From Candidatus Nanopusillus sp. (GTDB lineage: Archaea > Nanobdellota > Nanobdellia > Nanobdellales > Nanobdellaceae), in assembly GCA_036845085.1 (NCBI GenBank), contig DAIUEN010000016.1, positions 1-14,203 on the forward strand: a stretch of DNA of 14,203 nt, read 5' to 3'. Of the stretch, positions 79 to 14,203 are shown in pieces. The position numbers and the translations under genes were made by a program. Below the pieces are notes generated by a model that did not search any database, had not been told where the DNA came from, and saw only the letters and a program-made list of their open reading frames with translations. The stretch's first letter is position 1, and each line of letters opens with the position of its first letter.

Positions 79-756
79 ATGTTGTTCTTAAACCTCAAAG
101 CAATAGTAATAGATCTAGACGGAACATTAGTGGATACCATACCAATATTTGAAAAAATACACAAAGAAATATTGAAAAGATATGGGATAGTATTACAAGA
201 TAGTTTAGATACAAATGGTTCTTCACCAAAAGAAATGATATATTTATTATCAAAAAAATATAACATAGAATTGAATTATGAAAAAATATTAGAAGAAGCT
301 GAAAACATATTTTTAGAAAAATATATAGATAATGTAAAATTTACTCCTGGTGCTAAAGAATTTTTAATTTATATAAAAGAAAAGAAATATAAATTGGGTT
401 TATATACATCCAATTCAAAAAAATTAGCATCTGCAATATTAGACAAATTAGGTATAAGAACTATGTTTGATTGTATAATTACTGGGAATGATATAAATAA
501 TTTAAAACCAGAACCTGATGGATATTTAAAAATATTAGAATGTTTAAATGTTAAACCCTATGAAGTGATAGCTATAGAAGATTCAATATATGGGGTTATT
601 TCTGCAAAAAGAGCGGGAATTAATGTTATAGCTGTTTTAACTGGAGTCAGTAAGAAAAAAGAACTAGCTTCTGTAGGAGCGACTTTAATATTTAAAAACC
701 TTAAAGAACTAAAAAAGTATTTTGAAGATCAAGATAAATACAACAATCATCAGTAA
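79..756 (+). CDS. HAD-superfamily hydrolase, subfamily IA (beta-phosphoglucomutase / phosphoglycolate phosphatase-like)
   Basis: The ORF-track protein carries the four HAD motifs: DLDGTLVDT (DxDxT), LYTSN (S/T), NLKPEPDGY (Lys) and EDSIYGVISAKRAG (acidic motif IV). The track starts at a TTG (58). The in-frame ATG at 79 (MLFLNLKAIVIDLDG) lies ~25 nt downstream of a TATA-like tttatattt element, so 79 is the likelier, leaderless start. Confidence 0.8.
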   Translation: MLFLNLKAIVIDLDGTLVDTIPIFEKIHKEILKRYGIVLQDSLDTNGSSPKEMIYLLSKKYNIELNYEKILEEAENIFLEKYIDNVKFTPGAKEFLIYIKEKKYKLGLYTSNSKKLASAILDKLGIRTMFDCIITGNDINNLKPEPDGYLKILECLNVKPYEVIAIEDSIYGVISAKRAGINVIAVLTGVSKKKELASVGATLIFKNLKELKKYFEDQDKYNNHQ

Positions 757-933
757 AATAATTATAGATATAATTAATAATTTTTCGTTATTCGAAAATA
801 TTATTGGTATGGGACCTATTAATATTACACCAGCATAATTTACATTTCCAATATTATAAAAAAAGTAAAGTAATATTAGTATAAAGCCAATTATTATTAA
901 TAATATTCCCAACAATAAGAATATTTCCTTCAT
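709..933 (-). CDS. Small integral membrane protein, 74 aa, two or three hydrophobic spans; resembles the archaeal DUF131/TIGR00304-type family by its GVILIGPIPIIF motif
   Basis: The ORF is strongly hydrophobic. Its ATG overlaps the upstream gene's TGA in an ATGA arrangement at 930-933, suggesting translational coupling. The family assignment is from memory of the G-x-IGPIPI motif only. Its 3' end overlaps the convergent HAD gene by 48 nt. Confidence 0.5.
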   Translation of the reverse strand: MKEIFLLLGILLIIIGFILILLYFFYNIGNVNYAGVILIGPIPIIFSNNEKLLIISIIILLMIVVFILIFKILF

Positions 934-1199
934 ATTAATTTTAATTTATAGAAATGTGTATGACCAAAATGTATTATAAGATCTATTCCATATTTGTCTA
1001 ACCACACAGGTATATCACATCCTCCAAAATTTGATCCTAAATATATGAAAAATTCTGTCTCTGGGTACTTCTTAGATAGTATATCATATATTTCTTTTGA
1101 ATATGGTTTTAATCCATCAGGAAATTGTAATAAAACTCTTTTATATTTTTTCTTATCTAAGACTTCATATATTTTTTCTAATTGAAAATCTATCTCCAT
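930..1199 (-). CDS. dph2: Diphthamide synthase Dph2 (2-(3-amino-3-carboxypropyl)histidine synthase), N-terminal ~90-residue fragment only
   Basis: KRVLLQFPDGLK...YLGSNFGGCDIP...GIDLIIHFGHTHF matches the N-terminus of archaeal Dph2, including the first of the three Fe-S ligand cysteines. Full-length archaeal Dph2 is ~330-340 aa; this ORF stops at 89 aa. It overlaps minD by 10 nt upstream and the next ORF by ATGA downstream. Confidence 0.7.
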   Translation of the reverse strand: MEIDFQLEKIYEVLDKKKYKRVLLQFPDGLKPYSKEIYDILSKKYPETEFFIYLGSNFGGCDIPVWLDKYGIDLIIHFGHTHFYKLKLI

Positions 1200-2560: not shown

Positions 2561-2580
2561 AAAATAAAGCTTATTAAATA

Positions 2581-2812
2581 GGTGCCCGTTGGAAAGTCCG
2601 CCTACCGTTAAAAACGCCCGGAAAACCGGGGGGAAGGAATTCCCGGCAACGCCACAGAAACCCAGGGGTGTATACCGATGAAGATGAAAGGTTAAGATCT
2701 TGAGGCAACTCAAGATCAACCTGGAGAGGTATACACTACCTTGAAAGGGCGTCCCGTTGGTAAAAGGATAGCCGATAAGAAAAATATATACTAAAGGCGG
2801 CTTACGGGCACC
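2581..2812 (+). ncRNA. rnpB: Candidate RNase P RNA, unusually small (~232 nt) and architecturally reduced
   Basis: The region is a GC-rich island. A terminal 9-bp helix pairs 2581-2589 with 2804-2812. CR-I GGAAAGUCCGCC sits at 2591-2602 and a CR-V-like ACUAAAGGCGGCUUA at 2790-2804. P4 pairs 2594-2602 with 2796-2803 and has the canonical bulged U at 2597. Internal elements resemble P8, P9, P11 and P12, with CR-II-like ACAGAAA and CR-III-like GAAAGGG. The ORF-track ORF 2558..2869 across it is spurious. Confidence 0.75.
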
Positions 2813-4467
2813 TAATAAGATTTTCCAGCATATACATAATATTTTGCTTCTCTTCCACAGAAAATACATTTTTTTCCATCAGCCTTTTCAGGATTATTAT
2901 AATCTATCCCTCTTATATCGATAGAGAATGCCCTTTTAGCATTTTCTGCACATTTTTCATCCATACAAAATGGTATTTTAAAGGCTAACTTATTTCCTAA
3001 ATTATTCTTTAATTCATCTAAACTTTCTATTTTTATAATTTTACTTTTTATATATTCTTGCGATCTATTTTTTAATTCCTTTTCATAGTCTGATATTATA
3101 TTTTCTAAAGATGAAAGTAAATATGTAAAATCTATTTCATATTTTTGAGATTGAGAATTAAATTTCCTAACAGATACAATAACAGTATTATTTTCAACCT
3201 CTTTTTTACCTATTTCTATCCTTATCGGAACTCCCATTTTTTCATATTCATTAAATTTCCATCCTGGGGTTCTATCTTCAGACAAATCTAATTTAACTCT
3301 ATATTTATCTTTGAGGATATTATATATTTTATTACAATAATCTAATATTTTAGAATTATCATATTCTTTTTGATATATTGGGATTATAACAATTTGTATA
3401 GGAGCTAAATTAAATGGTAATATCAATCCAATATCATCTCCATGTATAGATATTACTGCTGCTAATGTTCTCATTGAGATCCCAAAAGAAGTCTGCCATA
3501 CGTATTTTTTGTTTACTAATTTTACATCTTTAACATTTTTGTAAAAAATATCTAAAATTGTATTTACTAAGTCTACATTATCTTCAGATATCTCTCCTTG
3601 ATAGTATATTTTAGATTTTATTATTAAATTTCCTCCAGTAATAGTTAGTAAATCTCTATCTATTTCAAAAACATATCTATGTCCATTTTCATCGTATGAC
3701 TCAAATTTATTTTTATCTATCTTAACTAGAGGATGTCTATCTTCGAATACTATATTATAAGCTTTAGAAAAATTCCTTCCCAATAAATGAGTAGTACCTA
3801 TCTGCAAGAATTTACCATCTGGTAATATTGTATCAGCAGCCATGGTATAATCAGCTCCAGCAAACTTATCCCAATCAGGTCTCATAACCCAGAAGTGTGG
3901 AATTGATAAAAATTCCCAAAATATTTTAGAATATATTTCCATAGATTTAACAATCATTCTTTCAGCATCGTCTCTATCTTTATGAACAGTATGGGCTTCG
4001 TTCCAAAGTATTTCTCTCCCTCTTATCAAAGGTTTTGTAGCTTTTGTTTCATATCTGTATACAGTATTAGTCATATAAGTCAATAATGGAAGGTCTCTAT
4101 AAGATTTAATCCAAAGAGAAAACATATAATACATTTCTGTTTCTGAAGTAGGTCTTAGAATATAAACTGTTTCCACTTCTTCTTCTACAGGATTCGATGG
4201 CTTAACATAAAAAACTTCTTTCTCAAATCCCTTTATATGTTCGCTCTCTTTCCTAAATATTTCATAGGGTATTAATATTGGAAACCAATATGCTGAAAAT
4301 CCTTCACTATCCAACAATTTTTCTAATTCTGAAAGAATTTTTTTTATCATAAAATATCCATAGTTCGTATAAACAGGCATTCCTTTTATAGGATATCTAT
4401 CATCAATTATTTTAGTATCTCTTATAATATTGTTATACCATTCTGAAAAGTCTTCATCTTTCTTCAT
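2812..4467 (-). CDS. proS: Prolyl-tRNA synthetase, archaeal/eukaryote-like class IIa, with a C-terminal Cys-cluster domain and terminal Tyr
   Basis: The N-terminus FSEWYNNII...RYPIKG, the motif-2 region RYETKATKPLIRGREILWNEAH, YVWQTSFGIS...IHGDD.GLILP, the anticodon-binding region, CMDEKC...CIFCG and the C-terminal ...AGKSY all match archaeal-type ProRS. It contains an extra ~75-aa segment (aa ~243-321). Confidence 0.93.
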   Translation of the reverse strand: MKKDEDFSEWYNNIIRDTKIIDDRYPIKGMPVYTNYGYFMIKKILSELEKLLDSEGFSAYWFPILIPYEIFRKESEHIKGFEKEVFYVKPSNPVEEEVETVYILRPTSETEMYYMFSLWIKSYRDLPLLTYMTNTVYRYETKATKPLIRGREILWNEAHTVHKDRDDAERMIVKSMEIYSKIFWEFLSIPHFWVMRPDWDKFAGADYTMAADTILPDGKFLQIGTTHLLGRNFSKAYNIVFEDRHPLVKIDKNKFESYDENGHRYVFEIDRDLLTITGGNLIIKSKIYYQGEISEDNVDLVNTILDIFYKNVKDVKLVNKKYVWQTSFGISMRTLAAVISIHGDDIGLILPFNLAPIQIVIIPIYQKEYDNSKILDYCNKIYNILKDKYRVKLDLSEDRTPGWKFNEYEKMGVPIRIEIGKKEVENNTVIVSVRKFNSQSQKYEIDFTYLLSSLENIISDYEKELKNRSQEYIKSKIIKIESLDELKNNLGNKLAFKIPFCMDEKCAENAKRAFSIDIRGIDYNNPEKADGKKCIFCGREAKYYVYAGKSY

Positions 4468-4606: not shown

Positions 4607-4631
4607 GGGGTAAAGGGGTCTATATACCCCA
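4607..4631 (+). other. 5' strand of the 23S pre-rRNA processing helix; pairs with 7536-7560
   Basis: ggggtaaaggggtctatatacccca is complementary to tggggtatatagacccttttacccc (7536-7560) over 25 bp, with one G-U pair. Confidence 0.85.
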
Positions 4632-7535
<2,904 letters not shown>

Positions 7536-7560
7536 GTGGGGTATATAGACCCTTTTACCC
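7536..7560 (+). other. 3' strand of the 23S processing helix, followed by a T-rich tract (7573-7577) that is a plausible terminator
   Basis: It is complementary to 4607-4631. An oligo-T stretch (aatttttatt) follows immediately downstream. Confidence 0.8.
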
Positions 7561-7585: not shown

Positions 7586-9091
7586 TTAGAATTCTATTTT
7601 GTATGTTCTCAAAACTTCTTCTTTATTTAAATAATACATATTTACAATTTGAGAAAAGGTCTCATAATCATATACACCAAGATCTAATAATCTTCTAAGC
7701 AGCTTAGATCTTATTATTAATTCTTTATATAGCTCTGAATATTTTATACCATATTCTTTAGATATTTTATAGAGTAAATAAGATTTCTTATTAAATATAT
7801 ACCTTTTTTTGAAGGCATCCCAAACAAAAACCCTATTATATTTATTATAACGTATTATTTCATCTATTTCACCAACTCTTCTAAAATTTTTTCCAAAAGA
7901 TACATCGTGTCTCATTATTATGACAACATTTAACAGCTCTACCAAATATTTTGATAAATTAATAGGAGGAGAAACTAATCTATTTATTAAAGATTTTACA
8001 TCTGTAGAATGCATAGTAGATAAAGCTGCATGTCCAGAAGCCATCCCCTGAAACATTACATAAGCCTCTTCTCCTCTTACTTCACCAACAATAACATAAT
8101 CTGGCCTTTGTCTAAAAGATAATTTTAGTAAATCAAACATAGAAATTTCATCTACCATAGAAGAAGAAGATCTAACTACAGAAGGTATCCAATTTGGATG
8201 ATATAACTTTATTTCTCTTGTATCTTCTATAGATACTACTCTAGCATTGTGTGGTATAAACATAGAAATTGCATTCAAGAAAGTTGTCTTTCCAGAAGCT
8301 GTACCTCCAATTATTATTATATTCTTTTTATATTCCACTGCTAACCATAAATAAGCAAATATTTCTGGAATTGCTGTATTAATCTTAATTAATTCTATAG
8401 GACTCCAAGGAATATCTCTAAATTTTCTAATAGTAAATGTTGGACCTCTTGTTGTAATATCTTTAGAATAAGTAGCATTAATTCTAGATCCATCTGGTAA
8501 TGTTGCATCTAATAATGGTTCTGCATACGATATATGCTTACCTGCCCTTAAAGTAAACTTTTCTATTATATTTATTATCTCTTCTTCATTTAATACAATG
8601 TTTGTTTTTAAATTTCCAAATATCCTATGAACTACAAAAACAGGAATATTAGATCCAGAACATTCTATATCTTCTATATAAGGATCTCTCATCAACGGTT
8701 CTATTTTATAATATCCATATATATCCCTAAAAATGTAATAAAAAATTCTATTATAAGAATTTTCATCATTTATTTTAATACCATACTCCGATAAAATAAA
8801 ATTATACAACCTTTCTAAATAAGATATTACTTGGTTTATATCTTTTAATTCAGATAGTTTTATAATTAGTAAATGTTTAATTTCTGAAGATACAATATTA
8901 TATATTTCTTTTTCTTTTTCATTTAAAGGTGGTTCTACTACTTCATAAATTATATTAGAAGTATTTTTATCAAAATATATGTGTGCATAAGCATATGGTT
9001 CTATAAGAGGATAAACTATATTCAGTGATGTCAAGTCTGTGGGTCTTTCCAAATTCAATCTCTTTTCTGTATATAGATTTATTTTAAACAT
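7586..9091 (-). CDS. flaI: FlaI/ArlI-type (VirB11/PilB superfamily) archaellum or type IV pilus assembly ATPase
   Basis: It has a Walker A motif GGTASGKTTFLNA and a Walker B/Asp box RPDYVIVGEVRGEEA. The N-terminal domain pattern YPLIEPYAYAHIY...YEVVEPPLNEKE is typical of archaeal FlaI-like ATPases, and the length is 501 aa. Confidence 0.88.
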   Translation of the reverse strand: MFKINLYTEKRLNLERPTDLTSLNIVYPLIEPYAYAHIYFDKNTSNIIYEVVEPPLNEKEKEIYNIVSSEIKHLLIIKLSELKDINQVISYLERLYNFILSEYGIKINDENSYNRIFYYIFRDIYGYYKIEPLMRDPYIEDIECSGSNIPVFVVHRIFGNLKTNIVLNEEEIINIIEKFTLRAGKHISYAEPLLDATLPDGSRINATYSKDITTRGPTFTIRKFRDIPWSPIELIKINTAIPEIFAYLWLAVEYKKNIIIIGGTASGKTTFLNAISMFIPHNARVVSIEDTREIKLYHPNWIPSVVRSSSSMVDEISMFDLLKLSFRQRPDYVIVGEVRGEEAYVMFQGMASGHAALSTMHSTDVKSLINRLVSPPINLSKYLVELLNVVIIMRHDVSFGKNFRRVGEIDEIIRYNKYNRVFVWDAFKKRYIFNKKSYLLYKISKEYGIKYSELYKELIIRSKLLRRLLDLGVYDYETFSQIVNMYYLNKEEVLRTYKIEF

Positions 9092-9132
9092 GATAAGACT
9101 ATTATATACGTAAGTTCATATAAATTATAGTA
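9092..9132. promoter_or_regulatory. 41-bp divergent intergenic region holding two crossed TATA-like elements (attatata for the + gene, aatttatat on the minus strand for flaI)
   Basis: Each AT-rich element lies ~25-30 nt from the opposite ATG. This implies two leaderless, back-to-back overlapping promoters. Confidence 0.4.
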
Positions 9133-10506
9133 ATGATAGATATAGAGATACTAAAAAGAGTAGATGAAGAACTTAATAAGGTAAATAAACTCTTAAAAAG
9201 AGTAGAGTATATAGATAAATCGATAGAAGAAAAAGATACGTGGAAAAAAAATATAGAAAAATTGTACATGAATGGATACTTAAATGAAAAAGAATATAAA
9301 AGAAATATCAGAGCCATAGATTTAGAAATAAGAGAACTAAATTTTAAAAAACTAGATTATCTACTAAAAGTTTCAGATATATTGCATAACTTAAATTTAA
9401 CTTTAAAATTCTTAGAAAACAATTCTAATACAAATAATCAAAACATACAAAAAGTAATAGAATACAAAAATATCATAGAAACTTATGACAAAAAAGTTAA
9501 AGAAATAGAAAAAAACATAATTTTTGAGAAAAAATACTCTCTTATAAAAAAGTTTATAGAAGAAGAACAAAAAAAGAAATATAAAAAAGAAGAAATAAAG
9601 ATAAATAAAAGGCCAATAAAAAAAATCAATAATGATATAAATTTTATTTCAGAAATAAAGGATTATATAATTAGCTTGTCTAACAAGATTTTTTATAATT
9701 TCTCTAAAAATATTCTGGATAGATATCCACAACTATATTATATAATAAGAGAAAATTTAAAAAATTCTTATATAGATATTGATCCTTCATCATTTTTATC
9801 TCTAGTATTATTTTTACTTTTGGTATTAATACAAATTTCAATTTTTTTGTCTTTGTATTATACTAATATTTTTGCATTTTTTTCCGGTTTGATAATTATT
9901 GCTGCCTTGATAGGAATTATTTATGTTTATATTAACGAAAAGAAAAAAGAAGTAATATATAACATTAGATCTAATCTTCCATATGTAGTAATACATATGG
10001 CATCTTTAGCTCAATCTGGAATAGAAATAAAATATATAATAAAAATTATAGCAGAAACTACAGAATACGGATATTTATCAAAAGAATTTCACAAATTATA
10101 TCAAATGTTAGAGTTTGGTTTAAGTTTAACAGATGCTATAGATAATTTAAAAGATCAAACAATATCAAATGATTTAAGAGAATTTTTAGATGAGTTAAAA
10201 TTAACAATAATATCTGGTAGAAAAATATCAGAATTTTTGGTTGTTTATGCGCAAAATGTGATGATAAATTATCAAAGTTATCTGGAAAAGTTGGGTCAGA
10301 TAATGAAAACTTTTTCAGATTTATACGTAGGAATGGTACTTACAATCCCAATGATTTTGATATCTATGGGAATAATGCTAACAAGTATATTACAACAAGC
10401 ATATAGTATAGATATTTCTACTTTTTTGGCAATAGCTGTATACATAATATTACCAATTATAAATGTAGGCTCATTATTTGTATTTGGTAGAATTTCTAGA
10501 CTATGA
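9133..10506 (+). CDS. FlaJ/TadC-family platform protein, first half: one T2SS-F domain plus transmembrane segments, with a ~190-aa N-terminal K/E-rich coiled-coil extension
   Basis: The C-terminal two thirds show the FlaJ-like pattern: transmembrane helices, then LPYVVIHMASLAQSGIEI...EFHKLYQMLEFGLSLTDAIDNL...FLDELKLTIISGRKISEFL (GspF/T2SSF-like), then more transmembrane helices. The N-terminal ~190 aa is heptad-like and lysine/glutamate-rich. Confidence 0.75.
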   Translation: MIDIEILKRVDEELNKVNKLLKRVEYIDKSIEEKDTWKKNIEKLYMNGYLNEKEYKRNIRAIDLEIRELNFKKLDYLLKVSDILHNLNLTLKFLENNSNTNNQNIQKVIEYKNIIETYDKKVKEIEKNIIFEKKYSLIKKFIEEEQKKKYKKEEIKINKRPIKKINNDINFISEIKDYIISLSNKIFYNFSKNILDRYPQLYYIIRENLKNSYIDIDPSSFLSLVLFLLLVLIQISIFLSLYYTNIFAFFSGLIIIAALIGIIYVYINEKKKEVIYNIRSNLPYVVIHMASLAQSGIEIKYIIKIIAETTEYGYLSKEFHKLYQMLEFGLSLTDAIDNLKDQTISNDLREFLDELKLTIISGRKISEFLVVYAQNVMINYQSYLEKLGQIMKTFSDLYVGMVLTIPMILISMGIMLTSILQQAYSIDISTFLAIAVYIILPIINVGSLFVFGRISRL

Positions 10507-11342
10507 AACTAAAAATAGAATATATAGTAATAATCTTATTTGTAATTCTATTTAATATTTTTTATTTTATTTTGAAAAATCCAATAAGTGATTCTATAAT
10601 ATCTTCTTTTTCTATATCATTAATACCTTATTTATTATACCAAGAAATATTAAACAAAATCCATAAGGAGACGGAAGAAGAATTTACAAGATTTCTATTA
10701 GATCTTGCGCAATTATTAAAATCTGGCTTACCTATATCAGTAGCTATAAAACAAATAGAAAAGTCTGGTTATAAAAGGTTACAACCACTAATAAACAATC
10801 TATCAGCTAAATTAGATTGGGGCATTGGGTTAAAAGATTCTTTAATTTCTTTTGCAGAAGAAAGTGAAAATCCAACAATAAAAAGATATATAAAAACAAT
10901 TTTAGATATTTATGAAAGTGGTGGGAAATTAGAAGAAAGTATAGAAGCAAATATAAATAGCTACCTAGAAATAAATAAAATAAAAGAAAAGAAAAGAGCA
11001 GAAATTCATGAAAATATAATACATTCATATCTAGTGTTTATATTCTTTTTAGGTATAGTATATACATTCAATATATTCTTATTACCTTTCTTACAGATTT
11101 CTATCCCTGGACAAGAAAATAAGGTGAATATAGAATTTATATCTTTGCTTATGTACCATTTATCTATAATACAAGCAATCTTTGCAGGTCTAGCGATGGG
11201 TAAAATGTATGAAAATTCCTATAAAGCAGGTGCTAAATATATTTTAATCTTCCTATTTTTAGTAATCATATTATTTAAAGTAATAATACCTATATCTCCA
11301 AAAAATATAGGTATTTCTATATTAGATATTGGAAAAATATAA
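10503..11342 (+). CDS. FlaJ/TadC-family platform protein, second half: second T2SS-F domain plus transmembrane segments
   Basis: FTRFLLDLAQLLKSGLPISVAIKQI...GLKDSLISFAEESENPTIKRYIKTILDIYESGGKLEESI is a second T2SSF-type repeat flanked by transmembrane helices. Its ATG overlaps the upstream TGA as ATGA at 10503-10506. Confidence 0.75.
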   Translation: MKLKIEYIVIILFVILFNIFYFILKNPISDSIISSFSISLIPYLLYQEILNKIHKETEEEFTRFLLDLAQLLKSGLPISVAIKQIEKSGYKRLQPLINNLSAKLDWGIGLKDSLISFAEESENPTIKRYIKTILDIYESGGKLEESIEANINSYLEINKIKEKKRAEIHENIIHSYLVFIFFLGIVYTFNIFLLPFLQISIPGQENKVNIEFISLLMYHLSIIQAIFAGLAMGKMYENSYKAGAKYILIFLFLVIILFKVIIPISPKNIGISILDIGKI

Positions 11343-11779: not shown

Positions 11780-12280
11780 TTATAAATAATACTTCGAAAA
11801 ATATTCTAAAAAGTTTTTCATGCCAAATACATATTTCTCCTTTAAAGATATAATCTTATATATAAAAGATAAAATATCAGCATATTCTCTTGTAAAATAA
11901 TATTCTTTTTTATTATTAATTTTAGAAATATAATATTCTGAAACATTATATGCTATATTATATGAATTCTTGAATTTCTTTTTTATCAAATACTTATAAT
12001 TTTCTTTACTGATATAATTATAAACTAAAAAAGATAGAAAAACAGCTTCTATTGGTATTATATATATTATGTCATCTTTTATTGGAACATCTTCTATATA
12101 TTTATATTCTTGAATATTTAATTTAAAATTCATATTATTCTTTTTATCAATTTTTTTTATTATATCTATAACAAAATCTTTAGAGTTTGATCTTAGAGCT
12201 ATTATATTTATCTCTTCGCTCCTTTTAAATTTTTTAGAATTTCTAATATCTCTTTTTACATATCTTTCATAAATGTTCAT
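11780..12280 (-). CDS. Hypothetical protein, 166 aa, translationally coupled to tgtA
   Basis: The ORF has the same codon bias as its neighbours. Its ATG overlaps the tgtA TGA as ATGA at 12277-12280. I see no recognisable motif, and it is glycine-poor with no PUA-like pattern. Confidence 0.5.
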   Translation of the reverse strand: MNIYERYVKRDIRNSKKFKRSEEINIIALRSNSKDFVIDIIKKIDKKNNMNFKLNIQEYKYIEDVPIKDDIIYIIPIEAVFLSFLVYNYISKENYKYLIKKKFKNSYNIAYNVSEYYISKINNKKEYYFTREYADILSFIYKIISLKEKYVFGMKNFLEYFSKYYL

Positions 12281-13485
12281 TTTATATTTTTATAGGAATT
12301 AAATGGAAATACATAATCATATATATATTCTACATCCTTAGGATCTACCCTCTCTTTCAATCTTTCAATTGCTTTTTTTACATCTATTCTTATTTCAGTT
12401 AGATCTCCACTATATATTATTCCAGACCTTTTTCTAACAGGATCTAACATCTTTAAATAGTTATAATACTTCTCCAATACCAACTTTGTTGCTTTATAAA
12501 CAGAATAATGAGAATGAGCTTTTATCAAAACCAAATCCATCAAATATTGATTCTTTATCGCATCTTTTATTAATTCTATTTCTTTTATTAATTGATATAA
12601 ATTATTCTCAGCTATTATTTTAATTTTTTCTTCTTTACTATAATCTTTTATTTCCTCTAAATGGAACATACCTTTCTTAGTTTCTAAAAATATATTAGAA
12701 GATTCTTCATATCTGAAAGTTCCAAAAGGAGTTATTATCCTTAAATCTTTTGCAAACAAGACATAAGATGCAGAATCAAATATATCAGCACCAATAGAAA
12801 CAGCTAGTGGAAGAATTATAGTATGACCCAACCCAAATAAGTGTACAGGTTTATTTAATGGTAAAATTATCCTAGATTCTAGTATATTTTCGAACAATTT
12901 ATCAAATTTATATTTTATCATATATGGTACTATTGTTCCCATAGCAAAGATATCTACATTAAGTCTAGATACTTCCTCAGCAGCTTTTCTTCTTAAATCC
13001 AAATATATTCCACCTTGAACTGCTCCATTTATTAATTTATTTCCTTTTAAATCAATACCTTCTTTTATCCTTTCAATAGTTAAATATAACTCTTTCTCGG
13101 CTTCTTCATGACTTTTATCAATATCTGTAGGTATATCTAGAACATTTATTATATCTGAATTTATATTTATTTGATATTCTATTATTTCTTTGTTTGTTAC
13201 TTCTAGATCTTTTTTATAATGTAACATTTGATATGATCCAGAATCTGTTTCTATAATACCATCAAATTTTAAAAACTCATGTATATCTCCATAAAATTTC
13301 TTCTTATATAAAATATATGCATTTGTCATTATTGCCTTAATATTATATTTTCTCATTTCTTCCGGAGTTATAATTAAGTTATTTGGATTAATAACTGGAA
13401 GAATTAATGGAGTTTCTAATTTCTTATTATTTACTTTTAAATATCCAATTCTACCAGCAACATCTCTATACTTTATCTCAAACAT
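12277..13485 (-). CDS. tgtA: Archaeosine tRNA-guanine transglycosylase (ArcTGT), catalytic domain only, 402 aa and cysteine-free
   Basis: MFEIKYRDVAGRIGYLK...ETPLILPVINPN, the catalytic-Asp motifs ETDSGSYQ and ADIFDSASY, GLGHT, and AENNLYQL...IKDAIK all match ArcTGT. It lacks the CxCxxC...H zinc motif and the C-terminal C2/PUA domains. Confidence 0.88.
   Translation of the reverse strand: MFEIKYRDVAGRIGYLKVNNKKLETPLILPVINPNNLIITPEEMRKYNIKAIMTNAYILYKKKFYGDIHEFLKFDGIIETDSGSYQMLHYKKDLEVTNKEIIEYQININSDIINVLDIPTDIDKSHEEAEKELYLTIERIKEGIDLKGNKLINGAVQGGIYLDLRRKAAEEVSRLNVDIFAMGTIVPYMIKYKFDKLFENILESRIILPLNKPVHLFGLGHTIILPLAVSIGADIFDSASYVLFAKDLRIITPFGTFRYEESSNIFLETKKGMFHLEEIKDYSKEEKIKIIAENNLYQLIKEIELIKDAIKNQYLMDLVLIKAHSHYSVYKATKLVLEKYYNYLKMLDPVRKRSGIIYSGDLTEIRIDVKKAIERLKERVDPKDVEYIYDYVFPFNSYKNIK

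Positions 13486-13533: not shown

Positions 13534-14203
<670 letters not shown>

Follow-up and report, generated by a model that had tools for sequence, protein, structure and literature searches.

A zinc-site-less, catalytic-domain-only TgtA (archaeosine tRNA-guanine transglycosylase) encoded by a Nanopusillaceae archaeon

The 14,203-nucleotide stretch of archaeal DNA analysed here (contig DAIUEN010000016.1; hereafter the window) contains tgtA, the gene of a 402-residue tRNA-guanine(15) transglycosylase (ArcTGT), at 12277..13485 on the minus strand. All four ligand positions of the structural zinc site known from tRNA-guanine transglycosylases (TGTs) are occupied by other residues in this protein, and the polypeptide ends before the C2 and PUA domains. 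At a probability of about 0.8 we regard the product as a functional, zinc-independent, minimal TgtA of a Nanopusillaceae archaeon; its activity and its metal-free state are what sequence, structure model and analogy with other archaeal enzymes lead us to expect. A reading of the same DNA from its letters and open reading frames (ORFs) only, hereafter the sequence-only reading, had already proposed a zinc-independent variant, and this is still the best interpretation: the ligands are absent, a hairpin is confidently modelled in their place and the catalytic residues are kept. Such an enzyme would replace G15 of tRNA by the 7-deazaguanine base preQ0 through the usual mechanism with two aspartates, D81 and D237, and the preQ0 would probably come from the host. 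The structural zinc knuckle, which lies away from the active site in other TGTs, would be replaced by a metal-free beta-hairpin, IFLETKKGMFHL, with a Glu-Thr pair that is conserved in the clade. The tRNA-binding C2/PUA domains would be outside this polypeptide and be either dispensable or supplied in trans.

The closest relatives of the window's proteins belong to Nanopusillaceae (Nanoarchaeota). Since the 16S rRNA fragment of the window is at most 92% identical to those of Nanopusillus, Nanobsidianus, Nanobdella, Nanoclepta and strain YN1, the window represents an unsampled lineage of this family.

Identity and predicted competence of TgtA

Assignment of the ORF to TgtA is based on two profile families, a solved structure and a structure model obtained with AlphaFold2 (AF2). 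The TgtA equivalog model of NCBIfam (TIGR00432) gives 377.6 bits at a cut-off of 350 (E=6.1e-113), and PF01702 is the only Pfam domain present (E=3.6e-57, profile positions 3-352 of 357). The model for bacterial and eukaryal queuine TGTs (TIGR00430) reaches 99.5 bits, below its cut-off of 306.75, and the model for archaeosine synthase ArcS (NF040592) reaches 43.8 bits, below its cut-off of 440. The best relative of solved structure is the ArcTGT of Pyrococcus horikoshii (1iq8; E=3.8e-86 with HMMER), which aligns over residues 10-389 of its 582 with residues 2-377 of the query. Judged from sequence and model, the ORF is TgtA (ArcTGT, EC 2.4.2.48) in a reduced form consisting of a predicted TIM-barrel catalytic domain and a C1-like tail.

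The catalytic aspartates had been placed by the sequence-only reading in the motifs ETDSGSYQ (D81) and ADIFDSASY (D237), and alignment to 1iq8 confirms both. More specifically, D81 (codon 13243..13245, minus strand; DSGS motif) corresponds to P. horikoshii D95, and D237 (codon 12775..12777, minus strand; FDSASY motif) corresponds to D249. The residues of the base pocket, D130 and Q169 in P. horikoshii, are retained as D117 and Q157. In an alignment of 50 TgtA sequences from Nanoarchaeota, Thermococcales, Methanococcales and others, D81, S82, G83, Q86, D117, Q157, G158, G183, H215, F217, G218, G220, D234, D237, S238, A239 and Y241 are invariant. The AF2 model built from this alignment has a mean predicted local distance difference test score (pLDDT) of 91.4 and a predicted TM-score (pTM) of 0.91; Foldseek places it on 1iq8_A with a TMq of 0.93 and a root-mean-square deviation of 1.9 Å in 414 alignment columns. 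Comparison with an orthologue of 74% identity from a 773-kb genome (L001) gives a ratio of nonsynonymous to synonymous substitution rates (dN/dS) of 0.16 for the whole gene, a value of purifying selection, and tgtA persists in genomes of 0.6-0.77 Mb. On account of the invariant catalytic residues, the agreement of model and fold and the low dN/dS we argue for a folded, selected and catalytically competent TgtA, with the activity itself as the predicted part.

A few observations weigh against this interpretation. F99 is changed to Tyr and G196 to Thr in the window TgtA, both minor changes near the base pocket, and the catalytic loop 81-90 is modelled at lower confidence (pLDDT 71). In addition, Pfam finds no C1 dimerisation domain (TGT_C1, PF14809) in the last 81 residues, although the same model recognises this domain in the short relative P0059. 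Alignments to 1iq8 by HMMER and Foldseek do run through the C1 region.

Loss of the zinc site and its distribution

Translation of the ORF confirms a 402-residue protein without a single cysteine. By itself this count carries little information. The 11 ORFs of the window contain 12 cysteines in 3214 residues (0.37%), about 1.5 would be expected in 402 residues, and the probability of finding none is about 0.2; zero cysteine is thus unremarkable as a signal, because the whole window proteome is cysteine-poor. The meaningful part is that four normally conserved ligand positions have been replaced. In the HMMER alignment, C279, C281, C284 and H307 of 1iq8 stand opposite L267, T269, K271 and N294 (nt 12604-12687), so that the structural zinc site CxCxxCx22H is not present in the window TgtA. 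The sequence-only reading was right about the loss of all four ligands, their residue numbers and the nucleotide range.

The former zinc-binding segment covers residues 265-297 (12595..12693, minus strand) as delimited by alignments to 1iq8 and relatives and by AF2 secondary structure. A check of what has replaced the zinc subdomain had been proposed, by profile and by structure prediction. In the AF2 model, which has a TM-score of 0.93 to 1iq8, the former knuckle forms a beta-hairpin from strands 266-269 and 272-275, and a long helix (284-311) comes after it; pLDDT is 91-96 in the former zinc stretch and 91-97 by blocks over residues 251-300. Residues E268 and T269 within the segment are conserved across the clade. 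The dN/dS of codons 255-300 against the L001 orthologue is 0.32, compared to 0.16 for the gene as a whole. The segment is therefore more relaxed than the whole gene, yet still constrained.

How far the zinc site is conserved among TgtA proteins was assessed by searching 1.84 billion representatives exhaustively with HMMER, which gave 150 family members. The CCCH set occupies the ligand positions in 132 of 153 aligned family representatives. The Cys triad is missing in 19 of 146 TgtA representatives, which fall into about 10 separate groups of a neighbour-joining (NJ) tree, and both catalytic aspartates are retained in every one of them (19/19). The named members of these groups belong to Thermoplasmata/Thermoplasmatales, Poseidoniales and Altiarchaeota, and the four ligand positions of the other zinc-less lineages hold unrelated residues. 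The sequence-only reading had taken the zinc site to be family-wide and necessary for the fold. This premise is not supported. Besides the 19 representatives, Kawamura et al. (2016, NAR 44:1894; PMC4770233) describe the ArcTGT of Thermoplasma acidophilum (Ta1493) as an enzyme without the CXCX2CX22H motif which forms G+13 and G+15 when expressed in Thermococcus kodakarensis, and the same text places the zinc site opposite the catalytic pocket and assigns it no part in catalysis. Because of these 19 representatives and the active T. acidophilum enzyme, the zinc motif cannot serve as arbiter of TgtA membership. Universality and indispensability of the CCCH site in the TGT family is a textbook-style assumption that has to be corrected, and for Thermoplasma the correction is already published.

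Within Nanoarchaeota the site can be followed from retention to complete loss. The CxCxxC triad is absent from all proteins of the Nanopusillaceae core (P0001-P0030) and from the N. equitans group (P0033-P0035), both close homologues of the window TgtA. The CCCH set is kept in P0032 and in the short nanoarchaeal proteins of about 400 residues P0036-P0041, and P0031 has two displaced cysteines. In an NJ tree with distances computed without the zinc region, the zinc-retaining P0032 and the Nanopusillaceae core form a group that leaves the N. equitans group outside in all 200 bootstrap replicates (200/200). Moreover, the N. equitans group has a deletion of five residues where Nanopusillaceae carry a conserved [FY]xET[KP]-NK hairpin. 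Since P0032 is nearer to Nanopusillaceae and the deletion is found in the N. equitans group, the two losses are likely to be independent, and at least two losses of the zinc site have likely occurred inside Nanoarchaeota. Three sub-lineages, that of the window among them, have secondarily lost the H307-equivalent His; the column reads N, V or A there. The nanoarchaeal proteins thus form a series from an intact CCCH set through a partly decayed site and a state in which only the His is left to the absence of all four ligands.

Novelty, as implied by the sequence-only reading, is not supported, as the same type of protein occurs in published genomes. The public genomes of N. stetteri and of the cultured symbionts N. 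acidilobi 7A and N. aerobiophila MJ1 each encode a Cys-free TgtA of 402 residues, the Nanoclepta minutus version has 415 residues and one cysteine, and the homologues are annotated as TgtA by the Prokaryotic Genome Annotation Pipeline (PGAP). An active ArcTGT without the zinc site and ArcTGTs without C2/PUA are both already established, and the window TgtA adds a new example of known variation. We found no comment in the literature on zinc loss in nanoarchaeal TgtA; in PMC10516641 zinc is mentioned only for other enzymes. What the locus adds is small: stepwise and repeated decay of the zinc site, complete loss of the four ligands and a candidate accessory gene, orf166. The nanoarchaeal series could guide the design of a metal-free TGT scaffold, or reveal how thermophiles substitute a beta-hairpin for a zinc knuckle.

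Missing C2/PUA domains, orf166 and alternative explanations

The C-terminal tail of the window TgtA (residues ~340-402; 12280..12468, minus strand) is a diverged, C1-like helical region according to Foldseek and to the HMMER alignment, which reaches residue 389 of 1iq8. Its last ~25 residues are modelled at low confidence, where pLDDT declines from 74 to 51. Absence of the C2/PUA domains, as stated in the sequence-only reading, is upheld both by this end point, at 389 of 582 residues, and by the finding of PF01702 alone: Pfam detects neither C2 (PF14810) nor PUA (PF01472) in the tgtA ORF, and neither is found in orf166 by Pfam or by fold. For the window TgtA these domains may be dispensable or may be supplied in trans. 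The protein may form the dimer used by other TGTs.

Directly downstream of tgtA lies orf166 (11780..12280, minus strand), defined by the ORF list, a homologue search and an AF2 model as the gene of a conserved basic orphan protein of 166 residues (pI 9.5). Its ATG overlaps the tgtA stop codon by 4 nt (ATGA), and because of this overlap we consider the two genes to be translationally coupled. Homologues of orf166 form 12 clusters, all from Nanopusillaceae, and there is a partial copy in locus L002. The gene comes after tgtA in 9 of 12 genome loci; Nanopusillus, Nanobsidianus, Nanobdella and Nanoclepta all have it in this place. The AF2 model of its product shows an alpha/beta fold (pLDDT 80). 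Pfam gives no match even at E<=10, a profile search of the PDB returns only chance matches and a viral library nothing; the best Foldseek matches, HGPRT and TilS (E~0.02, TM 0.35), are not significant. By eye, SN[ST]KDF and ILILPIEGV could be read as PP-loop and phosphoribosyl pyrophosphate (PRPP) motifs, a reading we do not claim, as the defining glycines and acidic residues are missing. It is conceivable, if rather improbable, that TgtA and orf166 form a complex in Nanopusillaceae, in which orf166, as a new subunit for tRNA binding or dimer stabilisation, functionally replaces the zinc subdomain and/or the C2-PUA module.

The strongest competing explanation concerns the missing domains. The 402-residue protein could be the N-terminal subunit of a split ArcTGT that is completed by a C2-PUA polypeptide encoded elsewhere, or by orf166; we consider this possible, with the odds against it. 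It opposes only the view that the domains are simply absent and leaves room for a zinc-free active enzyme. Reference to the split ArcTGT of Nanoarchaeum equitans in the sequence-only reading was apt, for NEQ124 is the N-terminal portion of such an enzyme according to Randau (2012; PMC3491384). According to PMC4770233, split-type ArcTGTs, namely those of Haloferax volcanii and Methanosarcina, are active, and deletion of PUA lowers the affinity for tRNA and not the activity. The basic charge of orf166, its 4-nt overlap with the tgtA stop and its conserved downstream position in four genera would also fit a second subunit. However, a separate PUA-domain ORF, which the sequence-only reading had suggested looking for, is not found: an HMM (hidden Markov model) of C2+PUA gives no match in the window and 17 related loci, together 139 kb of Nanoarchaeota DNA, a limited sample mostly from the same syntenic region. 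As the split-off C2/PUA part itself orf166 is ruled out, having no likeness to C2 or PUA by Pfam, PDB profiles, fold or the C2+PUA HMM. Furthermore, the zinc-less and PUA-less tgtA genes of L003/L014, L015 and L004 have no adjoining orf166, and TgtA proteins of about 400 residues are common among Nanoarchaeota.

Two further explanations deny either the metal-free state or the function. A zinc site rebuilt with ligands other than cysteine (E268, H275 and neighbouring Asp/Glu), so that a structural metal is still bound, would agree with the conservation of E268 and T269 in most Cys-less Nanopusillaceae, with the His at position 275 in many of them and with the H307-equivalent His kept in most relatives. 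We regard it as very unlikely. In the window TgtA the H307 equivalent is Asn. Many clade members have E, D, Y or R at position 275, and no ligand set is conserved, because the H307 column reads N, V or A in three sub-lineages; in other zinc-less lineages, too, the residues at the four positions are unrelated. Marginally less probable still is a decaying or neofunctionalised TGT paralogue that is dead or acts on another substrate (DNA, as DpdA does) or on another tRNA position. Both a normally conserved structural site and the tRNA-binding PUA domain are lost here, degenerate genes accumulate in the reduced genomes of symbionts, and the zinc-less T. acidophilum enzyme is reported in PMC4770233 to have an altered, multisite specificity. 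Lost or changed activity had indeed been offered as the other outcome by the sequence-only reading. Against it stand the catalytic and base-binding residues, all invariant, a score above the TgtA equivalog cut-off, the dN/dS of 0.16 and the retention of the gene in genomes of 0.6-0.77 Mb. Moreover, tgtA is fixed beside 16S rRNA in every sampled Nanopusillaceae genome, and no second tgtA-like gene was seen in the related loci examined. We therefore prefer a functional and zinc-independent TgtA.

Genomic neighbourhood and comparison with known enzymes

Upstream of tgtA on its own strand is the 3' part of the 16S rRNA gene (664 nt; 13540..14203, minus strand; Rfam RF01959, 647 bits), with 54 nt between its end and the tgtA start. 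N. acidilobi, N. aerobiophila and N. minutus show the same arrangement. The gap is ~45-55 nt in the window and in L012, L013 and L016, and Nanopusillus, Nanobdella, Nanoclepta and strain YN1 all have the order 16S-tgtA-orf166-rps19. Co-transcription of tgtA with 16S rRNA is possible. No tRNA genes that could be inspected for G15 are present in the window or in the Nanopusillaceae loci. The G+C content of the window is 24% and that of its rRNA genes 58-63%; such a high value in an AT-rich window is as expected for a thermophile.

An rRNA search locates the archaeal 23S rRNA gene at 4619-7549 (plus strand). It is unlinked from the 16S rRNA gene: ~6 kb carrying pilus-type and ribosomal protein genes separate the two, which lie on opposite strands. 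The pilus-type genes encode a PilB3-like secretion ATPase (7586-9091, minus strand), which adjoins two T2SSF-type membrane-platform genes (9133-10506 and 10503-11342, plus strand), and the cluster at 7586-11342, of type-IV-pilus or archaellum-like assembly, is syntenic with L001. A short archaeal RNase P RNA of 234 nt is found at 2580-2813 (plus strand) with 91.3 bits at a gathering threshold of 84 (the model has 288 positions), and it borders directly on the 3' end of the oppositely oriented ProRS gene. N. equitans is described in PMC3491384 as having no RNase P, so the presence of this RNA distinguishes the window lineage from it. An ORF of 89 residues (930-1199, minus strand) matches only positions 1-58 of 302 in the profile of diphthamide synthase, Dph2 (E=6.6e-12), and may, from its sequence, be a truncated, split or decaying dph2; it is followed in the ORF list by a very hydrophobic ORF of 74 residues (709-933, minus strand). 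Other protein genes of the window encode ProRS, a MinD/ParA ATPase, a HAD phosphatase and ribosomal protein S19 (Pfam).

Among known enzymes, P. horikoshii ArcTGT (1iq8 / 1j2b) has the TIM barrel and the catalytic and substrate residues in common with the window TgtA. It differs in having 582 residues, a CCCH zinc site and the C1-C2-PUA domains, whereas the window protein, with 402 residues, ends in the C1 region. Among the closest known proteins are the TgtA orthologues of N. acidilobi 7A, N. aerobiophila MJ1, N. stetteri and N. minutus, which are 64-75% identical, 402-415 residues long and contain 0-1 cysteine. The named Nanopusillaceae orthologues share the hairpin motif YxETK-NK and the 16S-tgtA-orf166 synteny with the window. 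Most of them keep the H307-equivalent His (AEHNLY), while the window TgtA has Asn at this place and has lost all four ligands. One Nanopusillaceae-type homologue (P0019) is 622 residues long due to a Cys-rich N-terminal extension of ~210 residues, probably a gene-call fusion with an upstream gene.

The N. equitans protein is likewise catalytic-domain-only. The match named N. equitans in UniRef (P0035), likely NEQ124, is ~410 residues long, has no cysteine and no zinc triad and is 50% identical to the window TgtA. Unlike the latter it has the five-residue deletion in the zinc segment and keeps the His, and the L004 gene, which is related to this group, lacks an adjoining orf166. On sequence grounds the zinc loss of the N. 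equitans group was probably independent of that in Nanopusillaceae. The loss in T. acidophilum Ta1493 is also independent of that in the window lineage: Thermoplasmata representatives fall into separate NJ groups and the replacing residues are unrelated. As described in PMC4770233, Ta1493 keeps C1, C2 and PUA with insertions and modifies both G13 and G15, in which it differs from the window TgtA. Like the window TgtA it has no zinc motif, and its activity in vivo provides the direct precedent for a TGT that works without this site.

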